From NCBI GenBank assembly GCA_051959325.1, contig JBQCFI010000289.1:28142-92141 (forward strand): DNA of 64,000 bases, read 5' to 3'. This document shows, piece by piece, positions 3,230 to 54,586 of the stretch. The position numbers and the translations under genes are program-made. Below the pieces are notes generated by a model. That model had not been told where the DNA came from. It searched no databases and saw nothing but the letters and a program-made list of their open reading frames with translations. Positions within the stretch are counted from its first letter, which is position 1; each line of letters begins with the position of its first letter. The stretch comes from Ginsengibacter sp. Lineage in GTDB: Bacteria; Bacteroidota; Bacteroidia; Chitinophagales; Chitinophagaceae.

Positions 3230-3249
3230 ACAGAATAATACGAATCATA

Positions 3250-4332
3250 ATGACAGCAAATAATTGTGCTCCGGCGAATGAAAGAAAGAAATTAAGCTTT
3301 TTAGATAGGTATTTAACCTTATGGATATTTTTAGCAATGTCGATTGGTGTTTCTATCGGATACTTCTTTCCCGCATCGTCTGCATTTATTAATTCCTTTT
3401 CATCCGGCACTACCAATATTCCCTTAGCCATTGGGCTTATCCTGATGATGTATCCACCTTTTGCAAAAGTGAAGTATGATAAGATGAGTGAAGTTTTTAA
3501 AAACACAAAGGTGTTAGGTGTTTCATTATTTCTTAACTGGATAATCGGGCCAATACTGATGTTTATTTTGGCAATTATTTTTCTAAATGGCTATCCTGAA
3601 TACATGACTGGTTTAATTCTCATTGGGCTTGCACGATGCATCGCAATGGTAATCGTTTGGAATGAATTAGCCGAAGGCAGCCGGGAATATGCTGCGGGCC
3701 TGGTTGCATTAAACAGTATTTTCCAGGTATTATTATATAGTGTCTATGCTTACGTTTTTATAACAATCCTTCCTCCTTTATTTGGTATCACAGGCTCAGA
3801 AGTAAACATTACCATTGGTCAAATTGCAGAAAGTGTTGCCATTTATTTAGGTATTCCATTTGCCGCAGGAATTCTAAGCAGGTATGCCTTAATAAAATTA
3901 AAAGGAGGAGAATGGTATGAGAAAAAATTCGTTCCGGTAATTTCCCCAATAACGCTGATAGCGCTTCTTTTTACGATTGTAATTATGTTTAGTTTGAAAG
4001 GAGAACTGATTGTTCAGATACCGATGGATGTGGTACGAATTGCAGTCCCATTGGTGATTTATTTTGTAATCATGTTCTTTGTCAGTTTTTTAATTGGCAG
4101 GAAAATGGGCGCAGATTATTCAACCAATACTTCCATAGCTTTTACAGCAGCAGGAAACAATTTTGAATTAGCAATAGCAGTTGCGATTGGCGTATTTGGA
4201 ATTAATTCAGGACAGGCATTTGCAGGTGTAATTGGCCCATTAGTCGAAGTGCCTGCATTAATTGCTTTGGTGAATGTAGCCTTTTGGCTGCGAAGAAAAT
4301 ATTATTCTAAAACACAGTTACAAAATACTTAA
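3250..4332 (+). CDS. acr3: ACR3-family arsenite efflux permease
   Basis: [50 protein letters not shown]. Confidence 0.96.
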
Positions 4333-7358: not shown

Positions 7359-7653
7359 GCGAAGATGATAAAATATCCAGATGATAAAATCAATAACTGG
7401 TTTTTGAGTTGTAAAGATTGAGTGGGAAGAAGATGAAGCAAACTGGATTCATTATTTATTGGTGAATTTCAAAATTCTTTTTTGGCGTTTATTTATAACA
7501 TAATCCAAATTCTAATAGCTGCATAGATATTGTATCCTTTTTAGCAGGTTTTTATTAGCAATCATTCACAACAGGATACAATCTCTGGATCATTTTTTTA
7601 TTTTTATAACCAACATTGCAACGGTTGTCACTTATTCAACATCGGTTATTTTA

Positions 7654-8106
7654 TTGCTTTATTCCATCATCAAAAAAAGATTTTTGTTGCAAAGAAAAAG
7701 TTGGTTGGTTTTTATTTCCCTTATTTTAACATCTGCTGTTATTGATAGTTTGAAACATATTGTAAACCGTACACGTCCTTTCATTACTTATCCTTCGATT
7801 CATAACCTGGTAAATGTTTCAACGGCTTCATTTCCTTCGGGGCATACCGGCGAAGTTTTTGTGTTGCCAACCGCAATTACACTTCTTTTTCAGAAACGGA
7901 AATGGTGCGTTTTAGTTGTTTGGATATGGGCATTTCTTGTTGCTTATACCCGCTTGGTTTTAGGGGTTCATTATCCAAGTGATGTTTTAGCTTCCGTAGT
8001 TATTGGAACAGGCATCGGTATTGCTTTTCCGCAATTCTTAATTAAGCGTGGCTTTCTTCAGCATCATATTCGTTGGGAACGATTATATTCAAAGCGGAAG
8101 GAATAA
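7654..8106 (+). CDS. PAP2-family membrane phosphatase #1 (start uncertain, possibly pseudogene)
   Basis: KHIVNRTRP, FPSGH, TRLVLGVHYPSD; in-frame homology (IHNRIQSLDHFFIFITN) continues upstream to about 7540 with no ATG. Confidence 0.8.
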   Translation: MLYSIIKKRFLLQRKSWLVFISLILTSAVIDSLKHIVNRTRPFITYPSIHNLVNVSTASFPSGHTGEVFVLPTAITLLFQKRKWCVLVVWIWAFLVAYTRLVLGVHYPSDVLASVVIGTGIGIAFPQFLIKRGFLQHHIRWERLYSKRKE

Positions 8107-8654: not shown

Positions 8655-8677
8655 ATAAAAGTGCTTTTACTGTTCTT
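8655..8677. repeat. 23-bp exact repeat, copy 1 (contains palindrome TAAAAG-TG-CTTTTA)
   Basis: ATAAAAGTGCTTTTACTGTTCTT, identical at 11303-11325. Confidence 0.85.
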
Positions 8678-8709
8678 CAAATTTTCTCCAGAATCTGTTT
8701 TTACATTTG
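8676..8709 (+). promoter_or_regulatory. Response-regulator-type direct-repeat box plus -7 box
   Basis: TTCAAATTTTCTCCAGAATC, 6 nt, TACATTTG. Confidence 0.7.
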
Positions 8710-9260: not shown

Positions 9261-9294
9261 TTCAGAATTCCTTCAAAATTATTTTGTAATTTTT
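9261..9294 (+). promoter_or_regulatory. Direct-repeat box plus -7-like box upstream of the response regulator (autoregulation)
   Basis: TTCAGAATTCCTTCAAAATT, 6 nt, TAATTTTT. Confidence 0.65.
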
Positions 9295-9307: not shown

Positions 9308-9979
9308 GTGAAAATATTAATTATAGAAGATGAAAAAAGCTTGAGCGAAAGTATGGCGGCATATCTTTCTTCACAGGATTATCATTGTGATATTGCTGAA
9401 GATTATGATACAGCAGTTTACAAAACTGAATACAATGATTATGATTGTATTTTGCTCGATATTACTTTGCCCGGTGGAAATGGATTAAAGATTTTGGAGC
9501 AATTAAAAGAAGACAAAAAAACGGATGGCGTACTAATTATTTCTGCAAAAAATTCTTTAGACGATAAAATAAAAGGACTAAACCTTGGTGCAGACGATTA
9601 TTTATCAAAGCCGTTTCATTTATCAGAATTAAATGCGCGTGTTGCTGCAATTATCCGAAGAAAAAAGTTTGATGGAAATTCTATTTTGCAGTTTAATAAT
9701 ATCAGCATTGATACACAAAGTAAAACAGTAATGGTAGAAAATAATCCGGTAGAACTAACAAAAAAGGAATACGAATTGTTGATTTATTTTGTTTCAAATA
9801 AAAAACGGATTATCTCCAAAGAAGCAATAGCAGAGCATCTTTGGGGAAATGACATGGCCGGAAATTTTGATTTTATTTATACCCATATCAAAAATCTACG
9901 AAAGAAATTAATGGATGCCGGAGAGGCAGATTATATCAAATCTGTGTATGGAATGGGTTATAAATTTACAACGCAATGA
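9308..9979 (+). CDS. OmpR/PhoB-family response regulator
   Basis: IIEDE, LLDITLPG phosphoacceptor, GADDYLSKPF, winged helix with SVYGMGY. Confidence 0.95.
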   Translation: MKILIIEDEKSLSESMAAYLSSQDYHCDIAEDYDTAVYKTEYNDYDCILLDITLPGGNGLKILEQLKEDKKTDGVLIISAKNSLDDKIKGLNLGADDYLSKPFHLSELNARVAAIIRRKKFDGNSILQFNNISIDTQSKTVMVENNPVELTKKEYELLIYFVSNKKRIISKEAIAEHLWGNDMAGNFDFIYTHIKNLRKKLMDAGEADYIKSVYGMGYKFTTQ

Positions 9980-11235
9980 AACTACTTGCAAAATACAATC
10001 GCGTAAATATTCCGATTACGATCATTACACTTTTGATCACTGGCATTTGTTTTTATTTTATCATCCATTATGTTTTGGTGTATCAGCTTGATAAAGATTT
10101 ATATATCGAACAACAAGAAATTATACATTACATAAAGGAGAAAGGAACTTTACCGGAAACCTCCAACTATAAAGACCAGCAAATTGAATTTCACTCCACA
10201 AAAAATGGTGATTTTAAAAGTAAATTTTCGACAACAGAAGTTTATGATAAAAAAGAAAACGAATCGGATATATTCAGAAAATTGGATTTTTTTGTAACAA
10301 TTAATGGTAACAATTATATAGCAGAAGTAAAAAAATCACAAGAGGAAACAGAAGATATTATTCAGATGATTTTAGTAATTACTTTTTCTGTAATTATTTT
10401 TTTACTTCTCGTACTTTTTATTGCTAATCGGTTTCTACTGGCTAAAATATGGAAACCATTTAATCATACTTTAGCACAGCTAAAACAATTTAATCTTTCT
10501 TCTAAAAATAAAATTGTACTTCAGCAAACGGACATTAATGAGTTTGATGAACTAAATGAAACGGTACTTTTTATGACTGAAAAAGTAAGCAGGGATTATG
10601 AATCTCTGAAAAATTTTACAGAAAATGCTTCCCATGAAATACAAACTCCTTTATCTATCATAAAAAATAAAATTGAATTGTTGTTGCAATCAGAAAATCT
10701 TGATAAAACCCAGGTCAATGCAATTCAAAGTTTAAACGATGCCGCTTCCCGGCTTTCCAAATTAAATCAGTCTTTATTGCTGCTTGCAAAGATTGAAAAT
10801 CATCAGTTTGAAAACGGCGAAAAAATTAATTTTTCATTTTTGCTGAACAGTTGTATTGAAAATTATGAAGAACTGGCAACGATTAAAAATATCAGCATTG
10901 AAAAAAATATTGCTGAAAATATATTTATAGAAATAAATGATTCACTTGCAGAAATTCTGATTTCGAATATTATTTTGAATGCGATAAAACACAATTACCA
11001 AAACGGGAACATAAAAATTCAACTTGCCTCAAACTCAATAATAGTAAGCAATACCGGCGATGCGCCACATGAAAATACCGCAAGATTGTTCGAGCGTTTT
11101 AAAAAAGATTCTTCTTCCTCTGATTCAATTGGGCTTGGATTAGCGATTGTAAAAACAATCTGTGATACTTATGGATTCATTATTTCCTATTATTATAAAG
11201 AAGATATGCATATAGTAAAAATTATTTTTCATTAA
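9976..11235 (+). CDS. Sensor histidine kinase
   Basis: Two TM helices, ASHEIQTPL H-box, NAIKHN N-box, GLGLAIV G-box; ATGA overlap with the regulator. Confidence 0.95.
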   Translation: MKLLAKYNRVNIPITIITLLITGICFYFIIHYVLVYQLDKDLYIEQQEIIHYIKEKGTLPETSNYKDQQIEFHSTKNGDFKSKFSTTEVYDKKENESDIFRKLDFFVTINGNNYIAEVKKSQEETEDIIQMILVITFSVIIFLLLVLFIANRFLLAKIWKPFNHTLAQLKQFNLSSKNKIVLQQTDINEFDELNETVLFMTEKVSRDYESLKNFTENASHEIQTPLSIIKNKIELLLQSENLDKTQVNAIQSLNDAASRLSKLNQSLLLLAKIENHQFENGEKINFSFLLNSCIENYEELATIKNISIEKNIAENIFIEINDSLAEILISNIILNAIKHNYQNGNIKIQLASNSIIVSNTGDAPHENTARLFERFKKDSSSSDSIGLGLAIVKTICDTYGFIISYYYKEDMHIVKIIFH

Positions 11236-11492: not shown

Positions 11493-11526
11493 TTCAAATT
11501 CTCTTCAGATTCAGTATTTAGGTTTG
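11493..11526 (+). promoter_or_regulatory. Direct-repeat box plus -7 box
   Basis: TTCAAATTCTCTTCAGATTC, 6 nt, TAGGTTTG. Confidence 0.72.
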
Positions 11527-12069: not shown

Positions 12070-13314
12070 ATGAATATGAGGTATTTTATAATAATTTTAG
12101 GTTTTCTTTCGCCGATATTTTCTTTTGGGCAAAACAAGGACCTTGATTATTTTATCAATAAATCGCTTACAAACGATCCCAGGATTTCAGAGATTCAGAA
12201 TTTAATTTTAGCAAATAAAGTTGACAGCGCCTTAATTGTTGCAGGAAATAAAGCCCAGGTTACAGGAAACGGAAATGCTTACTATGCGCCGGTTATAAAC
12301 GGTTGGGGTTATGATGTTCCCATCACCAACGGTCAGCAACTTTCTGCATTAGTTGCCTTGAATAAACAGATTTATAACAAGCGAAATTTGAGCTTGCAAT
12401 TCAAAAGTTTGCAATTGCAAAATGATTCATTGACCAATTTTATTGCTATCAGTAAACAGGATATTAAGAAGGCTATTATTACTCAATATATTACCACTTA
12501 TGGCGATCAGCTTCAATTAGATTTTAATGATCAGTTGATTGCTCTTCTATCTCAGGAAGAACAATTATTAAAAGCACTTACGCAGAAAAATGTTTATAAA
12601 CAGGCAGATTATTTATCATTTTTGGTAACGCTTCAGCAGCAACAATTAACCAGGAACCAATTGTTTGTTCAATATAAAAATAATTATGCAACGCTTAATT
12701 ATCTTGCAGGCATTGTTGATACAACTACTGAAACCCTTGCTGTACCAGAGATCCAGATAAAATCTAATTTTTATAACGGAAATTCTCCTTTTATTTTAAA
12801 TTATAAAATAGACAGCCTGCGCCTTGAGAACGAACGTGCTATCGTTAAATATCAATACCGTCCAAAAGTAAATCTCTTTGCTGATGCCGGTTATCAATCT
12901 ACTTTTGCAATAACTCCTTATAAAAATTTCGGTTATAGTTTTGGGATCAATCTTACGGTTCCGATTTATGACGGTCATCAAAAGAGATTGCAGTTTACGA
13001 AACTGGACATCCAGGAAAGAACAAGGCAAAAGCAAAGAAATTTTTTTTACAACCAATACCAGCAGCAGATTCTTCAATTGCAACAACAATTGAACGACCT
13101 TCAAAACCTTGCTGGGCCTGTGAATAAACAAATTGAATACCTGGAAGCGCTGATAAAAGTTAATGGAAAATTATTGGAAAAAGGTGATATCAGAATTACC
13201 GATTATGTGCTTGCTTTGAATAATTATATCACCGCAAAAAACCTAATTGTTCAGAATCAGATTGAGCGATACCAGGTAATCCAGCAACTCAATTATTGGA
13301 ATATGAAATTGTAA
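12070..13314 (+). CDS. TolC-family outer membrane efflux protein
   Basis: Signal peptide, Gln/Leu coiled coils, NLTVPIYDG strand, position in the RND operon. Confidence 0.85.
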   Translation: MNMRYFIIILGFLSPIFSFGQNKDLDYFINKSLTNDPRISEIQNLILANKVDSALIVAGNKAQVTGNGNAYYAPVINGWGYDVPITNGQQLSALVALNKQIYNKRNLSLQFKSLQLQNDSLTNFIAISKQDIKKAIITQYITTYGDQLQLDFNDQLIALLSQEEQLLKALTQKNVYKQADYLSFLVTLQQQQLTRNQLFVQYKNNYATLNYLAGIVDTTTETLAVPEIQIKSNFYNGNSPFILNYKIDSLRLENERAIVKYQYRPKVNLFADAGYQSTFAITPYKNFGYSFGINLTVPIYDGHQKRLQFTKLDIQERTRQKQRNFFYNQYQQQILQLQQQLNDLQNLAGPVNKQIEYLEALIKVNGKLLEKGDIRITDYVLALNNYITAKNLIVQNQIERYQVIQQLNYWNMKL

Positions 13315-13337
13315 AAAATGGATTTTAATCAAATCAA

Positions 13338-14285
13338 ATGAAAAGATATTTTGTAAAATCAGTTTTCGCATTATTTGTTTGTTTACTGCTTTTTGCCAGT
13401 TGCAAAACAAAGGACACAACCACTACAGATACTCCTGCAGAAGTTCGTGTATCTGTTACCGTTACATCTGTTTCTTTTGAACCATTGCAACAATACATCG
13501 ACCTGAATGCCACTTCCACTTTTCTCCGACAAAATTTTGTAAAATCAAACCTGAATGGTTACATACAAAAGGCGACTATCAAATTCGGCGATTATGTTAA
13601 TCGCGGCAGGGTTTTGTTTGTTTTAAAAACAAAAGAGGCAGCAGCAATTGGTAATTCGGTAAATAAATTAGATTCTAATTTTAATTTTTCCGGAGTGAAT
13701 GTGGTACGCGCCGATGCCTCCGGTTATGTAATGCAGGTCAATCACCAGGCAGGGGATTATGTGCAGGATGGCGAACAACTTGCTGTGATCAATGATTCTA
13801 AAAGTTTTGTTTTTGTGATGAATGTTCCTTACGAATACAAGCCCTACGTTTCTACCGGAAAGCAGGTGCAGCTTACTTTACCGGACGGTGAAAAATTATG
13901 GGGAACGGTAAAACCTTCTTTGCCAATAATGGATTCTGCTTCACAAACACAGGCGGTTTCATTGAATGTAAATTCTCCTCATCCTATTCCTGTAAATTTA
14001 GTTGCGAAAGTGCAGCTTTTAAAAGCATTAAAAACAGCCGCACCAACTTTAGATAAGAAAGCAGTTTTATCTGATGAAACAGAAACCAATTTTTGGGTAA
14101 TGAAAATGATCAATGATAGCACGGCTATAAAAGTGCCGGTAAAAACAGGAATAGAATCAGGCGCTAAAATAGAAATTATTTCTCCTGCTTTTCAGCCAAA
14201 CGATAAAATCTTATTGTCCGGAAATTATGGATTGGAAGACACGACAAAAGTGATTGTTCAAAAAGATTCGAGCGGTATTAAATAG
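13338..14285 (+). CDS. RND periplasmic adaptor (MFP) lipoprotein
   Basis: Lipobox FASC; ADASGYV, GDYVQDGE lipoyl-like motif; PVKTG. Confidence 0.88.
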   Translation: MKRYFVKSVFALFVCLLLFASCKTKDTTTTDTPAEVRVSVTVTSVSFEPLQQYIDLNATSTFLRQNFVKSNLNGYIQKATIKFGDYVNRGRVLFVLKTKEAAAIGNSVNKLDSNFNFSGVNVVRADASGYVMQVNHQAGDYVQDGEQLAVINDSKSFVFVMNVPYEYKPYVSTGKQVQLTLPDGEKLWGTVKPSLPIMDSASQTQAVSLNVNSPHPIPVNLVAKVQLLKALKTAAPTLDKKAVLSDETETNFWVMKMINDSTAIKVPVKTGIESGAKIEIISPAFQPNDKILLSGNYGLEDTTKVIVQKDSSGIK

Positions 14286-14314
14286 GCGTTCAAAAAAATA
14301 ATCGCATAAATAAC

Positions 14315-17300
14315 ATGAAAAATTTTTTCACCACATATAAAAGTCCGATGACCGTTGTTCTGGCAATGATCATTTTGGGCGGCGCATTTGCTTATACCAA
14401 ATTGCAAACGTCTTTATTTCCTGAAATTACTTTTCCTAAAATAAAAATTATTGCTGATGCGGGTTTGCAACCGGTTGATAAAATGATGGTAACTGTAACC
14501 CGTCCATTAGAATTAGCGATTAAAAAAATCCCGGACCTGACAGACATCAGAAGCATTACAAGCCGTGGCAGTTGCGAGATTTCAGCTTTTATTGATTGGA
14601 AAGCGAATGTAGATTTGAGTCAGCAAAGAATAGAATCAAGAATTGCCGAAATCAGAAATACCCTTCCGCCGGATGTAAATATCACGGTTGAGAAAATGAA
14701 TCCATCCATTTTACCGGTGATGGGCTATTCATTAGAGAGCCATGAACTATCACCGATAGAATTAAAACAACTGGCGCTTTATACCATCAAACCCTACCTG
14801 AGCCAGGTTCCCGGTGTTTCTGAGATAAGAGTAATTGGTGGAAAAACAAAGGAATACTGGATACAACTGGATCTGCAAAAAATGAGTACGCTCGGCCTTA
14901 CTCCCGAAGCAATCAACACTGCCTTGAGCCAAACAAATTTTATTCAATCAAACGGATATTTATCTGATTACCGCCATCTTTATTTAACCCTTACGAATGC
15001 TTCTGTTACATCACTCAATCAATTAAAAAATGTTGTGATCAGCAATAATGGCAAACGTGCTGTTCAGTTGCAGGACATTGCAAACATACAGGTAAAAGAA
15101 GCAGTTGAATACATAAAAGTAAACGCGAACGGTAAGGAAAGCGTTCTCATTGCTGTGGTAAAACAACCAAATAGTAATCTGATTGATGTGTCTCAATTAA
15201 TGAAAGAAAAAATCGCAGCGCTCCAAAATATTCTTCCAAAAGGGGTAACGCTGAAACCTTATTATGTTCAGGCAGATTTTGTAAATACTTCTGTAAAAAG
15301 TGTTACGGATAGTTTATGGATTGGATTGGTTTTAGCAATTATTGTCGTTATCATTTTTTTAAAATCTTTTAAAGCAAGCGCGACGATTTTAATCACGATT
15401 CCTGTTACGCTTGGCGCTACTTTAATTTCGCTGTATGCTGTTGGATACACCTTAAATATTATGACGCTTGGCGCTATTGCAGCCTCGCTTGGATTAATTA
15501 TTGATGATGCGATTGTGGTGCTTGAACAAATACACCGAACTCATGAAGAAAATCCCGGTGAAGAATATAAAACGATTGTACAAAAAGCAGTTCATTATTT
15601 GTTTCCGGCAATGGTTGGTTCTTCTATAAGCACGATCGTAATTTTTATTCCATTCATTCTGATGAGCGGCGTTGCCGGCGCCTATTTTAATGTGCTTACC
15701 AATACGATGATCATTACATTGGTTTGCTCATTTTTTGTAACGTGGCTGGGACTTCCGGTGGTTTATCTTTTATTTTCTAAGAAAAAAAAATCAGAAAAAA
15801 TTGTTACTCAAAAAGAAAAAAAGAAAAAAGAAAAACAACTTCAGTTAGAGAAAAAAGAAAAGAACTGGGTTACGTTTTTTGTTCTCCGGCCTTGGATCAG
15901 TTTCATATTTGTAGGGCTTTTGATTCTTTCTATTGTATTAATTGTATCAAGATTGCAAACTGGTTTTCTACCAAATATGGATGAAGGAACGATTGTGCTT
16001 GATTATTCCTCTCTTCCCGGAACGTCTTTGGAAGAAACGGATAAAGAATTGCAACAGGTAGAAAAAATTATAGTATCCACGCCCGAAGTAAGCGCCTATT
16101 CGCGACGCACCGGAACACAGATGGGATTTTTTATTACAGAACCAAACAGGGGCGATTATGAGATTCAATTAAAAGATAAAAGAAATAAAACAACAGATCA
16201 GGTAATAGAAGAAATCCGCAAAAGAATAGAAGCATCACAGCCCGCATTGCGGGTGGATTTTGGCCAGGTAATCAGTGATATGCTTGGCGATCTGATGACA
16301 TCTGTTCAACCGATAGAGATAAAAATATTTGGAGATGATTTAGAGAAAATAAAAACGCTTTCAACAAAGGTTGCAAACGTGATTGAAAATATAAAAGGTA
16401 CTGCTGATGTTTTTAATGGAATTACTATAGCAGGCCCTTCCGTTATGGTTACGCCGGATTATTTTAGAATTGCTCAATTTGGAATTACACCTGCTGATCT
16501 CCAGTACCAATTGCAAACTTCTTTGGAAGGGAATCTGGCAGGAAATATTTTTGAAAATAACCGCGTCTATGCGGTACGATTGGTTTATCCGAATAGCCAA
16601 AAGATGAGTATTGAAGATGTCAAAAAATTACAGATTGCTTCTCCGGATGGAAGGTTGAAACCAATCGGTGAATTGGCCGACGTGCAAATCAGTAAAGGCG
16701 ATGCCGAAATTGCGAGAGAAAATTTACAATCTATGGGTGTCGTTTCTGCCCGTTTGCAAAACCGCGATTTGGGAAGTACGATGAAAGAAATTCAAAATAA
16801 AATTTCCTCCAAAATTCAATTGCCGACTGGATATCATATTGAATACGGCGGCTCTTATGCGCAGCAGCAACAATCCTTTACAGAACTTTTAATGATCTTA
16901 ATTGCATCAAGTCTTTTGGTATTTGGCGTAATACTTTTTTTATTTAAAGATGCAAAAGCCGCATTCATTATTTTATTCCTTGCCGTGCTCGGAATTTCGG
17001 GAAGTTACCTTGCCTTATTTATTACCAATACACCTTTAAATGTGGGAAGCTATACAGGTTTAATTATGATTGTTGGAATTATTGGGGAAAATTCCATCTT
17101 TACTTTTCTGCAGTTTAAAGAAAACCTTCTCCATCAAAATACGGATGAATCTGTTGAAAATGCAATCTCAAAAAGGCTTCGTCCAAACCTGATGACCGCA
17201 ATTGCAGCCATCATCGCTCTTATGCCGCTTGCACTTGGAATCGGCGCTGGCGCTGAGTTGCACCAACCTCTTGCCATCGCTGTTATCGGTGGGTTTTTAA

Positions 17301-17386
17301 TCGCGCTTCCTTTATTGCTGATTGTGTTGCCTTCGTTGTTGAGGTTGTTTTATAAGAATGCAAAACAGAAAACTGCATTGCAGTAA
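14315..17386 (+). CDS. RND permease (AcrB/CusA superfamily)
   Basis: 1023 aa; LFPEI.FP, GLIIDDAIVV, RLRPNLMT, PLAIAVIGG. Confidence 0.95.
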   Translation: MKNFFTTYKSPMTVVLAMIILGGAFAYTKLQTSLFPEITFPKIKIIADAGLQPVDKMMVTVTRPLELAIKKIPDLTDIRSITSRGSCEISAFIDWKANVDLSQQRIESRIAEIRNTLPPDVNITVEKMNPSILPVMGYSLESHELSPIELKQLALYTIKPYLSQVPGVSEIRVIGGKTKEYWIQLDLQKMSTLGLTPEAINTALSQTNFIQSNGYLSDYRHLYLTLTNASVTSLNQLKNVVISNNGKRAVQLQDIANIQVKEAVEYIKVNANGKESVLIAVVKQPNSNLIDVSQLMKEKIAALQNILPKGVTLKPYYVQADFVNTSVKSVTDSLWIGLVLAIIVVIIFLKSFKASATILITIPVTLGATLISLYAVGYTLNIMTLGAIAASLGLIIDDAIVVLEQIHRTHEENPGEEYKTIVQKAVHYLFPAMVGSSISTIVIFIPFILMSGVAGAYFNVLTNTMIITLVCSFFVTWLGLPVVYLLFSKKKKSEKIVTQKEKKKKEKQLQLEKKEKNWVTFFVLRPWISFIFVGLLILSIVLIVSRLQTGFLPNMDEGTIVLDYSSLPGTSLEETDKELQQVEKIIVSTPEVSAYSRRTGTQMGFFITEPNRGDYEIQLKDKRNKTTDQVIEEIRKRIEASQPALRVDFGQVISDMLGDLMTSVQPIEIKIFGDDLEKIKTLSTKVANVIENIKGTADVFNGITIAGPSVMVTPDYFRIAQFGITPADLQYQLQTSLEGNLAGNIFENNRVYAVRLVYPNSQKMSIEDVKKLQIASPDGRLKPIGELADVQISKGDAEIARENLQSMGVVSARLQNRDLGSTMKEIQNKISSKIQLPTGYHIEYGGSYAQQQQSFTELLMILIASSLLVFGVILFLFKDAKAAFIILFLAVLGISGSYLALFITNTPLNVGSYTGLIMIVGIIGENSIFTFLQFKENLLHQNTDESVENAISKRLRPNLMTAIAAIIALMPLALGIGAGAELHQPLAIAVIGGFLIALPLLLIVLPSLLRLFYKNAKQKTALQ

Positions 17387-18006: not shown

Positions 18007-18040
18007 TTCAGATTTTCTTTAGAATCTTTGTCTTTCTTTG
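18007..18040 (+). promoter_or_regulatory. Direct-repeat box plus degenerate -7 box upstream of PAP2 #2
   Basis: TTCAGATTTTCTTTAGAATC, 6 nt, TTTCTTTG. Confidence 0.55.
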
Positions 18041-19878: not shown

Positions 19879-20982
19879 TTATTTTTTGACTCCAATAATA
19901 ATAGCATTTGCTACAGGATGATTGGCAGTAAATTTTAATCCTAAAAGTGAAGCAATTGTTTGTGCAAATTGCTTTTGATAAATCTGCATTTCTGTTTTTA
20001 ATTCACCTTTTGCAGGAATATCTGGCCCCATTACTGCAAACCATATCTCATTTGCGCCAGGAATATCACTTCCGTGGCTTGTCCATTGATTTTTATTATT
20101 ATCGCCGCGTCCATGGTCAACTGTAATGAATAATGAAGTTTTGTTCTTGTATTGCGGCTCACTTTGAATATAATTCCAAATGTCTTTTACCCATGCATCA
20201 AACTGATGCGCCGATTCCAGATAATCTTTGTAGTGACCTGCATGCGCCCATTCATCAGTTTCGCCATAAGCGATGTAAAGTAGCTTCGGCTTTTTGGTTT
20301 TCAAATATTCCATTGCTTCATATTGGGTAAACACATCAAGACATTCATCCATATCCCAGGGTTTATAAGAATCTCTGAGCATGGCATTAATCATCTTTTC
20401 TTTCGACGTTGCATTTTTTCCACCTGTTGGCGCAAATGCGGCTATTACCGGAAATCCGCAACGCGGTTTATTTAAAATTCTGTCGAAGGCTTCCCATGCG
20501 CCAAAAGCTGCAACACTATTTTTGAATTTCGGTTGCTTATTAATAAACTCCAAAACATTGGTATTGGGATTATTTTTATAATTGTTGGAATTAATTAACG
20601 TATCTACATAACCACAAAATATTTCGCTGTAGCCTGGATACGAGAACCAGTAAGGGTTTGAATTATTCACCTTATTTCCAAAAATACGATTTCCATATAT
20701 TTGTCCGTTTGCTGCAATCGTATTCCAAAGAAAAGGGAGCAATTTTTTTCTTCTCTCAGAAACATCGTTCGCCCAATATTTTTTAAAGATAAAAGTGCTG
20801 TCGCCCTGATTATATTTTCTGCGATTTGCAATCGCAGAATCCATTCCGCCAAATGCCTCCTGCCAGCGAAAACCATCAGTAGTGATGATTATGATATTTT
20901 CTGTTTTTTGCTGCGCAAAAGAAGGTTTTATGTTGGTTAAAAAAACAAACATAAGCAGCCACAAGATTTTAGGTTTTTTCAT
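19879..20982 (-). CDS. Secreted alkaline-phosphatase-superfamily metalloenzyme (phosphoglyceromutase-like)
   Basis: Signal peptide from ATG 20982 (MKKPKILW); IITTDGFRWQE, SYPGYSE, GETDEWAH, TVDHG. The track's extension to 21195 overlaps EamA and is judged spurious. Confidence 0.85.
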   Translation of the reverse strand: MKKPKILWLLMFVFLTNIKPSFAQQKTENIIIITTDGFRWQEAFGGMDSAIANRRKYNQGDSTFIFKKYWANDVSERRKKLLPFLWNTIAANGQIYGNRIFGNKVNNSNPYWFSYPGYSEIFCGYVDTLINSNNYKNNPNTNVLEFINKQPKFKNSVAAFGAWEAFDRILNKPRCGFPVIAAFAPTGGKNATSKEKMINAMLRDSYKPWDMDECLDVFTQYEAMEYLKTKKPKLLYIAYGETDEWAHAGHYKDYLESAHQFDAWVKDIWNYIQSEPQYKNKTSLFITVDHGRGDNNKNQWTSHGSDIPGANEIWFAVMGPDIPAKGELKTEMQIYQKQFAQTIASLLGLKFTANHPVANAIIIGVKK

Positions 20983-21134: not shown

Positions 21135-21548
21135 TTATAAAATCAAAACAAGGCCTCCACCAATAATCAATAATGCGCCAATTGCGGTTCTCCATGTTAA
21201 TGGTTCTCCTAAAAATACTACCGCTAAGATTATTGCAATCGCAACACTCATTTTATCAATCGGCGCTACCTGCGATACTTCACCTAATTGAAGCGCCTTG
21301 AAATAAAATATCCATGAAAGGCCTGTGGCAACACCCGATAAGCAAAGAAAAATAATATTTTGTTTAGTTAGCGAATGCATTGTGTAAGCGCCGCCCCTGA
21401 TAAATGCAATGCCCCAGGCAATGATTAAAATAACAATTGTTCGAATGGCTGTCGCCAAATCGGTATCCACTCCTTTGATGCCTACTTTTGCGAAGATGGC
21501 TGTCAATGCTGCAAATAAAGCAGCAAGTAAGGCATATATCCACCACAT
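21135..21548 (-). CDS. Single-domain EamA/DMT-family transporter
   Basis: ALFAALTAIFAKVG, LATAIRT, SWIFYFKAL, VAPIDKMS, FLGE. Confidence 0.9.
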   Translation of the reverse strand: MWWIYALLAALFAALTAIFAKVGIKGVDTDLATAIRTIVILIIAWGIAFIRGGAYTMHSLTKQNIIFLCLSGVATGLSWIFYFKALQLGEVSQVAPIDKMSVAIAIILAVVFLGEPLTWRTAIGALLIIGGGLVLIL

Positions 21549-21552
21549 AATT

Positions 21553-22140
21553 TTAAGTTTTAAGTTTATAAAATTTCAATTCAAGCTGTTGATAAATTAG
21601 TGCAAACATCCATCCTGTAAAACTACCAAAGAAGATTCCTCCAATTACATCGCCAGGAAAATGAACACCGAGATAAACCCGGCTATAGCAGACTAATAAT
21701 GCCCATGCAAAAAGCAAATAAGGAAACCATTTAATTTTTTGTTTTGTAATTAATGTAAGGTAAATAGTCAGACCGCTTACATTACAGGCATGAGCGGAAA
21801 TAAAACCAACCTGTCCTCCGCGATAATTGTTTACATAATGTAATAAATTTTCAATGCCGGGAATATGGCTTGGCCGCAATCTTATTTCCATTGATCTTAT
21901 AACCGTTGATGCAATCTGATCGGTACAAACAACTAAAGGAATAATTAGAAGAATTAGAAGCCAGCTTTTTTTACGGTAATAAAATATCAGCAGAAGAATC
22001 AGCAAAAAATAAAACGGATACCAGGAAGTTTCTCCGCTTGCGAACCACATAATTTTGTCCCAGAATAAATTATGATGACTGTTTATCAGCAACAATAGTT
22101 GTTTGTCCCAATAATTAATCCATCGAAGAAATGCCTGCAT
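21553..22140 (-). CDS. PAP2-family membrane phosphatase #3
   Basis: RSMEIRLRP, FISAH (PSGH variant), SRVYLGVHFPGD. Confidence 0.9.
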   Translation of the reverse strand: MQAFLRWINYWDKQLLLLINSHHNLFWDKIMWFASGETSWYPFYFLLILLLIFYYRKKSWLLILLIIPLVVCTDQIASTVIRSMEIRLRPSHIPGIENLLHYVNNYRGGQVGFISAHACNVSGLTIYLTLITKQKIKWFPYLLFAWALLVCYSRVYLGVHFPGDVIGGIFFGSFTGWMFALIYQQLELKFYKLKT

Positions 22141-22741
22141 CTTTTAAAAAATTTTGTTTAATAAAAACCCGGCTGATTATAACAGCTAAGCCGGAACTGA
22201 TAATCATAGAAGCAATGACATCACTTGGATAATGGACACCTAAAACAACCCGTGAATATGCTACCATAAACGCCCATATCCAGATTAAAAACAACCACAC
22301 ATTTTGTTTTGGAAATAAAATACTCAGGGAAGTTGCAATTAAAAAGGCATCTGCTGTGTGTCCGGATGGAAAAGAAGGGCTGCCACCACCTGATAGCTTT
22401 TCTATAAATGAATCCACTTCATAAGGCCGCTGCCGGTTTACCACCTGTTTAATGATTTCTATTATTATCGTATTAATGCCAAGGGAAATGAGTATCAGCC
22501 AGCTTTGCCTTTTTAATTTAAACCGATGTTTTACGAAGGCATATATCAAAAGAAAGACCGGTATTGCATAAGCTACAATATAAGAAGTGTTGGTGATGAA
22601 AATAAAAAAACCATCTAACGGCTTTATTCTTTCATGATTGATGAATTCTAAAAGTTGTAAATCCATTTCATACAATACACGAAAAAAATGTGCAAGAAGA
22701 AAGAAAAGAAAATGTGTGAAGGAAAGATAGAATGTGTGCAC
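22115..22741 (-). CDS. PAP2-family membrane phosphatase #4
   Basis: KQVVNRQRP, FPSGH, SRVVLGVHYPSD; start is GTG 22741 or ATG 22666. Confidence 0.9.
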   Translation of the reverse strand: MHTFYLSFTHFLFFLLAHFFRVLYEMDLQLLEFINHERIKPLDGFFIFITNTSYIVAYAIPVFLLIYAFVKHRFKLKRQSWLILISLGINTIIIEIIKQVVNRQRPYEVDSFIEKLSGGGSPSFPSGHTADAFLIATSLSILFPKQNVWLFLIWIWAFMVAYSRVVLGVHYPSDVIASMIISSGLAVIISRVFIKQNFLKDAGISSMD

Positions 22742-22775
22742 GCCTATAAGATTTAAATTTTATGATTTAAATAAT

Positions 22776-22828
22776 GCAGGCGCCATCAGTCCCTTTCGGG
22801 ACGGTTATACAGGAAGGCTCCATTTCCA
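22776..22828 (-). ncRNA. Fluoride riboswitch (crcB motif) #3
   Basis: Minus strand GGAAATGGAGCCTTCC-TGTATAACC-GTCCC GAAA GGGAC-TGATGGCGCCTGC: same layout as the copies before CLC and crcB; one A-G mismatch in the pseudoknot. Confidence 0.8.
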
Positions 22829-22836
22829 AAAGTCGG

Positions 22837-22844
22837 CAAATATA
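22837..22844 (-). promoter_or_regulatory. -7 box TATATTTG just upstream of riboswitch #3
   Basis: Matches TAnnTTTG about 9 nt before the aptamer GG. Confidence 0.65.
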
Positions 22845-22907
22845 AAAGGATTATGATAAATGAGCTTTTTAATTTCCGACATAAAGTCTAAACAAATATT
22901 TACAGGC

Positions 22908-22941
22908 CAAAACTAAAATCGAATTCTGTTAAGAATCTGAA
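22908..22941 (-). promoter_or_regulatory. Direct-repeat box plus -7 box (second, upstream promoter of the PAP2 cluster)
   Basis: Minus strand TTCAGATTCTTAACAGAATT, 6 nt, TAGTTTTG. Confidence 0.68.
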
Positions 22942-23281
22942 CTACGTGCCTTTTTATAGGAAACCCGCAAATATTCAAGAACACGGTATGTTTTATTGCA
23001 GCTATGGGTGATTTGGCTATGGCCTTCCTTTATCACATCCTTCCTGTACCATCAGAAGAATAATTTATTTACCACCGAACAAAAATGAACTAGCGATTGG
23101 CAATCTTTTAAAATTGCCTTTTGCCAAAATCCGAAAATGGAAGGAAAATGATAGAGAAGAAGGAAATAAAAATAAATTGAAACGCTGGCAATGCATCGTT
23201 CAGAATTATAGGAAGCTAAATTTTTTAATGCGGCGTTAACGTAATAAGCATAAATTTATTCTTCAAATGACTTAATTAAAA

Positions 23282-24103
23282 ATGGCTTTGAAACTGATTA
23301 TTAAAAATAAAATTGGCACGGAAAGGACTATAAAAATTTCACCTTTCAAAAAAGATATAAGGAAAACAAATCCTCATAAGCACAATAATTATTTTGAAAT
23401 TATTTATCTCTCAAACGGCAGTGGCTTTCATTACATTGACCAGAATAAATATCTTATTAAACCGCCTGTCCTGTTTTTTATCAGACAGGAACAGGTTCAT
23501 TATTGGGAATTAGAAAATGAACCGGAAGGTTATGTACTGATTATCAAAAAAAACTTTATTGGAAGAAGTCTCGATAATGAACTTAAATCCTTATTCACAA
23601 GAATTTCCAGCCAATGTTGTTTGCAGATAACAGAGACGGGAACTATAGAACAGATAATGCAATTACTTGCTGAAGAAAGCAAAGCAGATGATGAAAGTGT
23701 ATTTCATATAATGGAAGGTTTGCTAAAATCTTTGTTAGCTAAAATATTGCAGGTATCCCAACAGGTTATTAATAGTGCAGAAGTTAAATCCGACACTTAT
23801 CATTCTTTTACTGAATTATTGAGAGCAGGCAGTGGCATAAAAAACAAAGTGGCATTTTATGCCGAGAATCTCAACACGTCCCCACAAAACTTAAATGCGG
23901 TTTGCCGTAAAGCAACCAATCAATCAGCAGCGGATGTTCTATCAGCATTTGTATTAAATGAGGCAAAAAGGCTATTGCTCTATACAAATAATACCATTTC
24001 GGAAATTGCCTTTGCTCTTGAATTTACCGACCCTTCTCATTTTGTAAAATATTTTAAAAAGCATGTAGGAGCCACACCCAAAGCTTTCCGAAATAGCAAT
24101 TAA
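23282..24103 (+). CDS. AraC-family transcriptional regulator
   Basis: N-terminal cupin (PHKHNNYFEIIY); C-terminal EAKRLLLYT..TISEIAFALEF.DPSHFVKYFKK. Confidence 0.93.
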   Translation: MALKLIIKNKIGTERTIKISPFKKDIRKTNPHKHNNYFEIIYLSNGSGFHYIDQNKYLIKPPVLFFIRQEQVHYWELENEPEGYVLIIKKNFIGRSLDNELKSLFTRISSQCCLQITETGTIEQIMQLLAEESKADDESVFHIMEGLLKSLLAKILQVSQQVINSAEVKSDTYHSFTELLRAGSGIKNKVAFYAENLNTSPQNLNAVCRKATNQSAADVLSAFVLNEAKRLLLYTNNTISEIAFALEFTDPSHFVKYFKKHVGATPKAFRNSN

Positions 24104-51502: not shown

Positions 51503-51863
51503 AGCTATAAAAATTAAGGGGCCATAAAATTACAAATTTTACCGTTTTTAAAAAACGATTGATAAAAAAGGAACTTTAAGTCCGCTAACAATCTAATGTA
51601 ATAAACTGCATCCGGATAACACCCAATACAACCTGGAGAACGTTTTTGTTGGATAAAGAGATTAGAAAATAGGTGCTGTTCAAAATAATTTGTACCATGG
51701 TTCATAGCTTTTTGGTGTGGTAATCATTTGAGCTATGAAAAAGGGCTTGATTTGCTTAACCCTTTCTTTTATTCTTTTTCTAGGCAATGAGAGAAAATGA
51801 ATAAATTAAAAAACGTGTTTTGATTCTTTGTGATTTCTTTTATTATCTTCGCGCACTTTTCAC

Positions 51864-51921
51864 AGGAAATGGTGTCTTCCTGAACCAACCGCTTGGCCTT
51901 ATAACCAGCTAATGGCGCCTA
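51864..51921 (+). ncRNA. Fluoride riboswitch (crcB motif) #1
   Basis: GGAAATGGTGTCTTCC-TGAACCAACC-GCTTGG..CCAGC-TAATGGCGCCTAC directly upstream of CLC(F); -7-like TATCTTCG at 51844-51851. Confidence 0.92.
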
Positions 51922-51961
51922 CAAATTATTAGTAGTAATAAACCCGTTATAATTTGTAGGA

Positions 51962-54488: not shown

Positions 54489-54508
54489 AAACACTTAATT
54501 TTGAAAAA

Positions 54509-54564
54509 AGGAAATGGAGTTTTCCTATTATAAACCGTCCTGAAAGAAGGAATGATAACTCCTG
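54509..54564 (+). ncRNA. Fluoride riboswitch (crcB motif) #2
   Basis: GGAAATGGAGTTTTCC-TATTATAAACC-GTCC..GGA-ATGATAACTCCTG; perfect GGAGTT/AACTCC pseudoknot; -7 box TAATTTTG at 54496-54503. Confidence 0.92.
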
Positions 54565-54586
54565 TTCATTTGTAAAACAAATTACA

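Follow-up and report, generated by a model that had tools for sequence, protein, structure and literature searches.

The PAP2-PAP2-EamA cassette of a Ginsengibacter sp. genome (Chitinophagaceae) is preceded by a leader in which a two-component promoter and a fluoride-sensing RNA appear to be arranged in series. This raises the question of whether both layers are genuine and, if they are, what kind of gate they form. The DNA analysed here, referred to as the window, is a stretch of 64,000 nt (assembly GCA_051959325.1, contig JBQCFI010000289.1, positions 28,142-92,141). A preliminary description had proposed an AND-type gate, in which the two-component signal sets transcription and fluoride licenses translation, and had linked the PepSY/RND module of the window to fluoride biology. 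The four elements on which this proposal was built were all recovered on the minus strand of the window:

22922-22941, minus strand: putative direct-repeat regulator box, half-sites TTCAGATTCTT and AACAGAATT with an 11-nt period, recognised by a leave-one-out matrix and by conservation in orthologues
22908-22915, minus strand: distal -7 element TAGTTTTG, 6 nt past the box, exact match to TAnnTTTG
22837-22844, minus strand: proximal -7 element TATATTTG, exact -7 match abutting the aptamer, 9 nt before P1
22770-22836, minus strand: fluoride riboswitch aptamer, RF01734, 44.7 bits against an Rfam gathering score of 34 (E = 3.8e-9)
22740-22783, minus strand: sequestor hairpin (-13.6 kcal/mol), whose 5' arm is the pseudoknot strand GCGCCUG and whose 3' arm spans -16 to +2 of the start codon

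In the direction of transcription, TTCAGATTCTTAACAGAATT (22941-22922) is followed by the spacer CGATTT, TAGTTTTG (22915-22908), 63 nt, TATATTTG (22844-22837), the aptamer, the hairpin and GTG 22741. We consider it probable, with some confidence, that this single leader places the cassette under control at both transcription and translation. The predicted start sites lie near 22901 for the distal promoter, which would be regulator-dependent, and near 22832 for the proximal one, which would be independent of the box. The folding energy of the whole 201-nt leader is unremarkable (z = -0.83).

The genes that would be controlled by this leader are the following:

22115-22741, minus strand: PAP2 phosphatase 1, 208 aa, GTG start and conserved N-terminal extension (Pfam PAP2, 93.0 bits)
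21553-22140, minus strand: PAP2 phosphatase 2, 195 aa, overlapping gene 1 by 26 nt (Pfam PAP2)
21135-21548, minus strand: half-size EamA/DMT membrane protein, 137 aa, third gene of the cassette (Pfam EamA)
19879-20982, minus strand: secreted alkaline-phosphatase-superfamily protein, 152 nt past the EamA gene (weak Pfam Metalloenzyme/Sulfatase matches)

Both PAP2 proteins exceed the cut-off of PF01569 (93.0 and 62.4 bits, cut-off 27.2), and the motifs KX6RP, PSGH and SRX5HX3D are seen in the translation as KQVVNRQRP, PSGH and SRVVLGVHYPSD, respectively. Their scores against the SepP and PgpB equivalog models were under the cut-offs. The PAP2-PAP2(-EamA) gene order is kept at the orthologous loci L013-L016, L019, L022 and L103. 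The alkaline-phosphatase-superfamily gene is absent from the cassette at other loci, and its membership of the operon is uncertain. The same genome also carries a riboswitch-less PAP2-PAP2-EamA paralogue (C462) and a BacA gene; therefore, the fluoride-gated cassette is an accessory copy. A further PAP2 homologue (about 7507-8061, plus strand; 44% identity to the first PAP2 protein of the cassette) lies upstream of the PepSY/two-component module, contains two in-frame stops (TAG and TAA) and is probably a pseudogene.

The claim that the leader contains a fluoride riboswitch is borne out by the RF01734 match, which spans the full model (positions 1-64). Eight distinct riboswitch-bearing PAP2 leaders could be compared, with aptamer scores of 44.7 (window), 44.1 (L013), 49.9 (L103), 40.0 (L014), 40.8 (L016), 41.5 (L019), 39.2 (L108) and 28.3 bits (L105), the last of these being below the cut-off of 34. 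The central pseudoknot pair of the window aptamer is an A-G mismatch. Across the eight leaders, RNAalifold recovered the pseudoknot and P2 with compensatory changes (pair types CG:5 UA:2 UG:1 and CG:4 UA:3 UG:1). The genome holds four fluoride riboswitches, all inside 43 kb of one contig. Apart from that of the PAP2 leader, these are:

51856-51928, plus strand: fluoride riboswitch (Rfam model)
54501-54571, plus strand: fluoride riboswitch (Rfam model)
C289:94035-94114: fourth fluoride riboswitch, just beyond the end of the window, before another gene

The two further riboswitches of the window precede CLC-F-DUF190 and CrcB-DUF190-MFS-enolase-pyrophosphatase-metallophosphoesterase genes. The surroundings of the PAP2 riboswitch, with genes for CLC-F, CrcB, DUF190, enolase, pyrophosphatase, NUDIX, HAD and metallophosphoesterase proteins, are a fluoride-resistance island.

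The hairpin had been described as covering GTG 22741, and this holds at the level of single bases. Its arms (22782-22765 and 22758-22741) are lengthened by one pair, G22783-U22740, so that the 3' arm terminates at the G and U with which the codon begins, and these are paired with C22782 and G22783. As judged from its orthologues, GTG 22741 is the true start, because all 17 of them (66-92% identity) keep the N-terminal extension of 25 residues (consensus MxxFxxSFINxLxFxLSHFFKVLY), with a Met aligned to GTG 22741, and because Hanamia sp. L010 has ATG at the equivalent position. The start of paralogue 18065 had suggested ATG 22666 instead; this candidate was ruled out by the extension of the 17 orthologues and by the ATT (Ile) codon that Hanamia sp. 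L010 has at the equivalent of 22666.

The same hairpin is present in all eight leaders, where the aptamer ends 29-33 nt ahead of the start and the 3' arm terminates at the start codon. In the sequestor helix, 83% of the cells are paired across the eight leaders, as against 20-51% when the partners are slid. Covariation is slight, with three double-change pairs, a number that was reached by 177 of 500 shuffles. In free folding, the G and U of the start codon are unpaired at only 1% and 7%, respectively, and blocking the pseudoknot strand raises these values to 54% and 96%; the inner A-U stem of the sequestor can persist in the blocked form. Many fluoride riboswitches are transcriptional, and untranslated leaders often attract Rho. 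Since a pyrimidine-rich tract follows the hairpin, the main target of fluoride control might be transcript elongation, with termination that is intrinsic or depends on Rho, and not the initiation of translation. We regard this as unlikely. The search for a terminator-like site in 22000-23400 found none, so that an intrinsic terminator was rejected as the expression platform, and the stem is not immediately followed by a U-run, the sequence past it being coding and conserved as protein. The position of the 3' arm, which ends on the start codon in each of the eight leaders, also argues against an elongation switch. The best reading of the platform would be a translational switch that is turned ON by fluoride, to which secondary effects of Rho may be added.

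The transcriptional layer has its counterpart in the plus strand of the window, where the genes run in the order PepSY-like 8723, OmpR-type regulator 9308, PorY-family kinase 9976, PepSY-like 11560, RND pump 12070-17386, DUF1232, PAP2 18065 and HAD. The two-component system and the copies of the box found among these genes are:

8676-8709, plus strand: box module ahead of the PepSY-like gene 8723
9261-9294, plus strand: box module 14 nt ahead of the regulator gene, putative autoregulatory copy
9308-11235, plus strand: OmpR-type response regulator (223 aa, 9308-9979; Pfam Response_reg and Trans_reg_C) and PorY-family histidine kinase (419 aa, from 9976; HisKA and HATPase_c)
11493-11526, plus strand: box module ahead of the PepSY-like gene 11560, followed by the RND operon
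18007-18040, plus strand: box module ahead of the PAP2 paralogue 18065, followed by HAD

The kinase reaches 473 bits against NCBIfam NF052314 (cut-off 350). A PhoBR identity, which was prompted by the pst-phoU neighbourhood in L021, was discarded, since the kinase agrees with the PorY family and scores against the models of PhoR and PhoB remained far under the cut-offs.

The claim that the distal box is a real element is sustained by the recurrence of a 34-nt module, which consists of a first half-site (TTCARAWT), a second that starts 11 nt downstream of it after a 3-nt gap, a 6-nt spacer and the -7. In the leader, the half-sites TTCAGATT and AACAGAAT begin 11 nt apart and occupy the position of the upstream hexamer; the distance from the end of the box to the -7 is 6 nt in every copy of the module. 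Five copies are found in the window and three on other contigs of the genome. Simple patterns were rejected as evidence: CAGAn7CAGA is observed twice against 0.9 expected, so that the box alone is not significant, TAnnTTTG counts are not significant either, and only the full 34-nt module is informative. TAnnTTTG in fact has 60 matches in the window against 98 +/- 10 in shuffles, a depletion across the whole window that would fit a scenario in which spurious Bacteroidota promoters are selected against.

A weight matrix was built solely from the four other copies of the window (PepSY 8723, regulator 9308, PepSY 11560 and PAP2 18065), and with it the box of the riboswitch leader ranks 10th among 9.6 million genome positions. 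The sites that outrank it include three that lead into a regulator-kinase pair (C525), a PepSY-like gene (C256) and a PAP2-PAP2-EamA cassette (C462). The score of the riboswitch-leader box (17.5-21) is within the range of the best genome-wide chance matches and, therefore, its support rests on orthologous conservation. In this regard, the box lies upstream of the aptamer and on the same strand in all eight leaders, with scores of 10.8-24.5, where about 0.005 would be expected per leader (genome-wide, scores of at least 10.8 occur at a rate of 1.8e-5 per position, that is, about 0.0045 per 250 nt).

The three outranking sites belong to a second box set of the same assembly, located at C525:1439 (regulator-kinase pair, the regulator being 90% identical), C256:3587 (PepSY-like) and C462:7497 (riboswitch-less PAP2-PAP2-EamA). 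The C462 EamA is nearly identical to that of the window, and this set could represent either a true paralogue or strain heterogeneity of the metagenome-assembled genome.

OmpR/PhoB-type class II activators bind a direct repeat of about 11 nt that stands in place of the upstream promoter element and is combined with a standard -7. The box shows this classic arrangement and has a fixed position before the regulator gene, and for both reasons it is taken as the putative recognition site of the neighbouring OmpR-type regulator. Orthologues of this regulator are present in 60 of the 81 genomes of the genus. A pattern scan of the genus produced 31 matches, compared with 5 in its reversed control, and 17 of the 31, from 17 different species, sit 14-16 nt before the start of a regulator orthologue; this position is, on such comparative grounds, a conserved autoregulatory site. 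The pattern matched only the regulator-type -7 (TAATTTTT), and the scan therefore tests autoregulation alone and not the whole regulon. In these 17 species, the regulator genes begin with GTG or TTG 14-16 nt past the -7-like TAATTTTT, so that the regulator mRNAs must be nearly leaderless.

In genus species representatives, the box also precedes PAP2-PAP2 cassettes and divergent PepSY-like genes. At L019, a box module (2230-2263, score 24.9) stands before a gene for a 329-aa beta-propeller (YncE-like) protein, a possible further member of the regulon. Since the box regulon is widespread in the absence of the riboswitch, fluoride is argued against as the ligand of the kinase. Within the window, the link that had been drawn between the PepSY/RND module and fluoride biology stands, because the PepSY-like genes and the riboswitch leader share the box.

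Another factor might recognise this box, for instance an alternative sigma factor or the divergent AraC protein at 23282, whose gene sits 540 nt upstream of the riboswitch leader. This is very unlikely. The AraC gene is missing from the other loci that bear the box, in 17 species the box keeps a constant position ahead of the regulator orthologue, and an 11-nt repeat replacing the -33 element, followed by a standard -7, agrees with class II activation of the OmpR/PhoB type but not with an ECF promoter. The region that separates the AraC gene from the leader also contains a 13-nt direct repeat, CCTTCCTTTATCA and CCTTCCTGTACCA (23023-23051, 16 nt apart), which may be an AraC site.

The comparison of the eight leaders distinguishes two architectures. 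In the compact one (L013 and L103), the -7 that belongs to the box directly abuts the aptamer. In the extended one (window, L014, L016, L108, L019 and L105), the box and its -7 lie 55-100 nt upstream and a second -7 is found by the aptamer. The box is thus kept in all seven relatives (L014, L016, L019, L105, L108, L013 and L103). An exact -7 occurs 9-16 nt before P1 in L013, L014, L016, L103 and L108; as a second element, the exact -7 is kept in L014, L016 and L108, is weak in L019 and is destroyed in L105. L105 (447-620) combines this destroyed proximal -7 with a strong distal box (24.5), an aptamer of 28.3 bits and a change of the pseudoknot strand from CCU to CAU.

The proximal -7 of the window is the basis of a different reading, in which only the riboswitch and the proximal promoter are active, the distal box and its -7 being a relic of an ancestral regulator-PAP2 promoter left after the riboswitch module was inserted. 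In favour of this reading, the proximal -7 matches the consensus exactly and keeps the customary spacing to P1, most other copies of the box outscore that of the riboswitch leader (17.5), and relic states are known in the family, as the decayed aptamers of L017 and L107 illustrate. Even so, we give this reading a low probability: all six extended leaders have kept the box together with an exact -7 despite a diverged spacer, and in L105 the decay has affected the proximal -7, the distal module scoring 24.5.

If both promoters are used, as we prefer to think, the nature of the gate depends on the proximal one. Its -7 is exact, has no adjoining box match in the window and is conserved in L014, L016 and L108, so that basal, regulator-independent transcripts are probably made at the window locus. 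The layered control of the preliminary description finds good support in the comparison of loci, its AND-type gate only with a caveat. Both layers consist of conserved cis-elements that co-occur, but a strict AND would hold only if the proximal -7 were silent, and its exact sequence undermines such a gate at the window locus; as far as the architecture of the leaders indicates, a strict AND applies to the compact relatives L013 and L103 alone. The output of the window leader is likely to equal a fluoride gate multiplied by the sum of a basal level and a two-component boost, fluoride being obligatory and the two-component signal setting the amplitude. In folding predictions, the long leader that begins at the distal start makes a 5' hairpin of its own without engaging the aptamer domain; the layers of transcription and translation are, therefore, compatible.

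The following series of events, in which regulator binding, promoter use, the ON direction and the translational mechanism are our interpretation of the elements, their conservation and their co-occurrence, could operate at this locus. The phosphorylated OmpR-type regulator (9308-9979) would bind the repeats 22941-22922, at the -33 position, and this binding would activate the distal promoter through the -7 at 22915-22908. The boxless -7 at 22844-22837 would supply basal transcripts, and both transcripts would hold the whole aptamer. Without fluoride, GCGCCUG would pair with UAGGCGU and the hairpin would close, burying -16 to +2 of GTG, the region that a Bacteroidota ribosome, which does not rely on a Shine-Dalgarno sequence, would have to find open. 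With fluoride, GCGCCUG would be captured in the pseudoknot, the GC clamp would open and the start codon would be freed.

Loci that lack a functional aptamer help to place the leader in an evolutionary frame. In L021 (Ginsengibacter sp.), which is aptamer-less, the PAP2 gene and a regulator gene whose product shares 84% identity with that of the window point in opposite directions, with a box facing each way. In L010 and L022, which are also aptamer-less, PAP2 is embedded in other operons. L017 and L107 have a decayed aptamer before the orthologous PAP2, behind a PepSY-like gene (3240-3320 and 385-465, respectively); P1 and the pseudoknot are mutated, there is no Rfam match at E <= 1, and the sequence looks like a riboswitch being lost. 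No box was found in the 420 nt examined of these two leaders.

The combination of riboswitch and PAP2 occurred in 0 of 80 other species representatives of the genus, of which only 7 have a homologue of the first PAP2 protein, which makes the combination a rare, minority state. A search with the leader DNA in 60 relatives matched only the coding part, and a protein search at the family level, covering 150 genera, did not find a close orthologue. In a metagenome scan with the orthologue alignment, the matches listed had at most 48% identity and no aptamer was present among the 80 distant PAP2 loci listed, as judged by a regular expression that recovers all known copies; among the loci covered, the combination is confined to the present orthologue group. 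Cassettes with the riboswitch tend to adjoin other fluoride riboswitches or exporters (L013, L014, L016 and L103). The best explanation of this distribution may be that the link between box and PAP2 is widespread and ancestral in the genus, the riboswitch having been added in a subclade in which the cassette lies inside fluoride-resistance islands. The simplest history is that a riboswitch, sometimes with its own promoter, was captured by a pre-existing two-component promoter.

Serial control of this kind has a precedent. In mgtA of Salmonella and E. coli, a PhoP/PhoQ-dependent promoter is followed by a Mg2+-sensing leader (PMC11552253), so that one mRNA is subject in turn to a two-component signal and to a ligand sensed by its 5' leader, as is proposed for the leader studied here. 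However, the ligand here is fluoride and not Mg2+, the switch is a start-codon sequestor instead of an elongation/Rho switch, there is a second promoter without a box, and the host belongs to the Bacteroidota. The promoter itself resembles the Pho box of PhoB/OmpR class II systems in that two direct repeats with a period of about 11 nt replace the upstream hexamer and an autoregulatory copy precedes the regulator operon; it differs in its half-site (TTCARAWT), in the downstream element, which is the Bacteroidota -7 TAnnTTTG, and in the PorY-family kinase.

Phosphatases and enzymes of the HAD fold are known members of fluoride regulons, and cell-wall inhibitors become more potent in the presence of fluoride (PMC11139923). 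The present locus resembles known RF01734 regulons in its aptamer above the cut-off, its island with CLC-F and CrcB and its phosphatases, which are recognised members (PMC11139923). In contrast to them, its cargo is a PAP2-PAP2-EamA membrane cassette with no exporter in the operon, and a conserved protein-regulated promoter stands upstream. In the literature search, "fluoride riboswitch" was not found together with PAP2 or undecaprenyl, and no paper combining "two-component" and "fluoride riboswitch", with either term in title or abstract, was among the matches listed. The pairing of a two-component promoter with a fluoride riboswitch on one leader thus appears to be new for fluoride, the serial logic being known from mgtA.

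As to why such genes should answer to fluoride, PAP2 phosphatases could, as a speculation, serve as fluoride-proof lipid-phosphate phosphatases, since PAP2 enzymes are metal-independent and the classic targets of fluoride are Mg2+ enzymes. A more far-reaching idea, which we put forward tentatively and consider unlikely, is that the leader is a coincidence detector of two compartments, the PorY-family kinase sensing the periplasm and the fluoride RNA sensing the cytoplasm, which switches on the metal-independent PAP2 enzymes as fluoride-proof back-ups for the processing of undecaprenyl-pyrophosphate or lipid A phosphate. If this were true, the recycling of envelope lipid carriers would be a physiological target of fluoride toxicity, and the locus would illustrate the way in which a two-component regulon that already exists can take up a riboswitch module.

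The leader provides a natural, phylogenetically supported case in which a signal sensed by a protein and an anion sensed by an RNA are placed in series. Among the sister loci the box occurs alone, fused to the aptamer, or together with a second promoter and the aptamer, and these three states offer comparisons for the study of how such logic evolves. The PorY-family two-component system, which is common in the genus and had been uncharacterised, now has a putative binding motif and a candidate core regulon made up of PAP2 cassettes, PepSY-like genes and the operon of the system itself. The fluoride regulon, for its part, gains membrane PAP2 phosphatases and a half-size EamA protein, which points to envelope lipid-phosphate metabolism as fluoride-sensitive.
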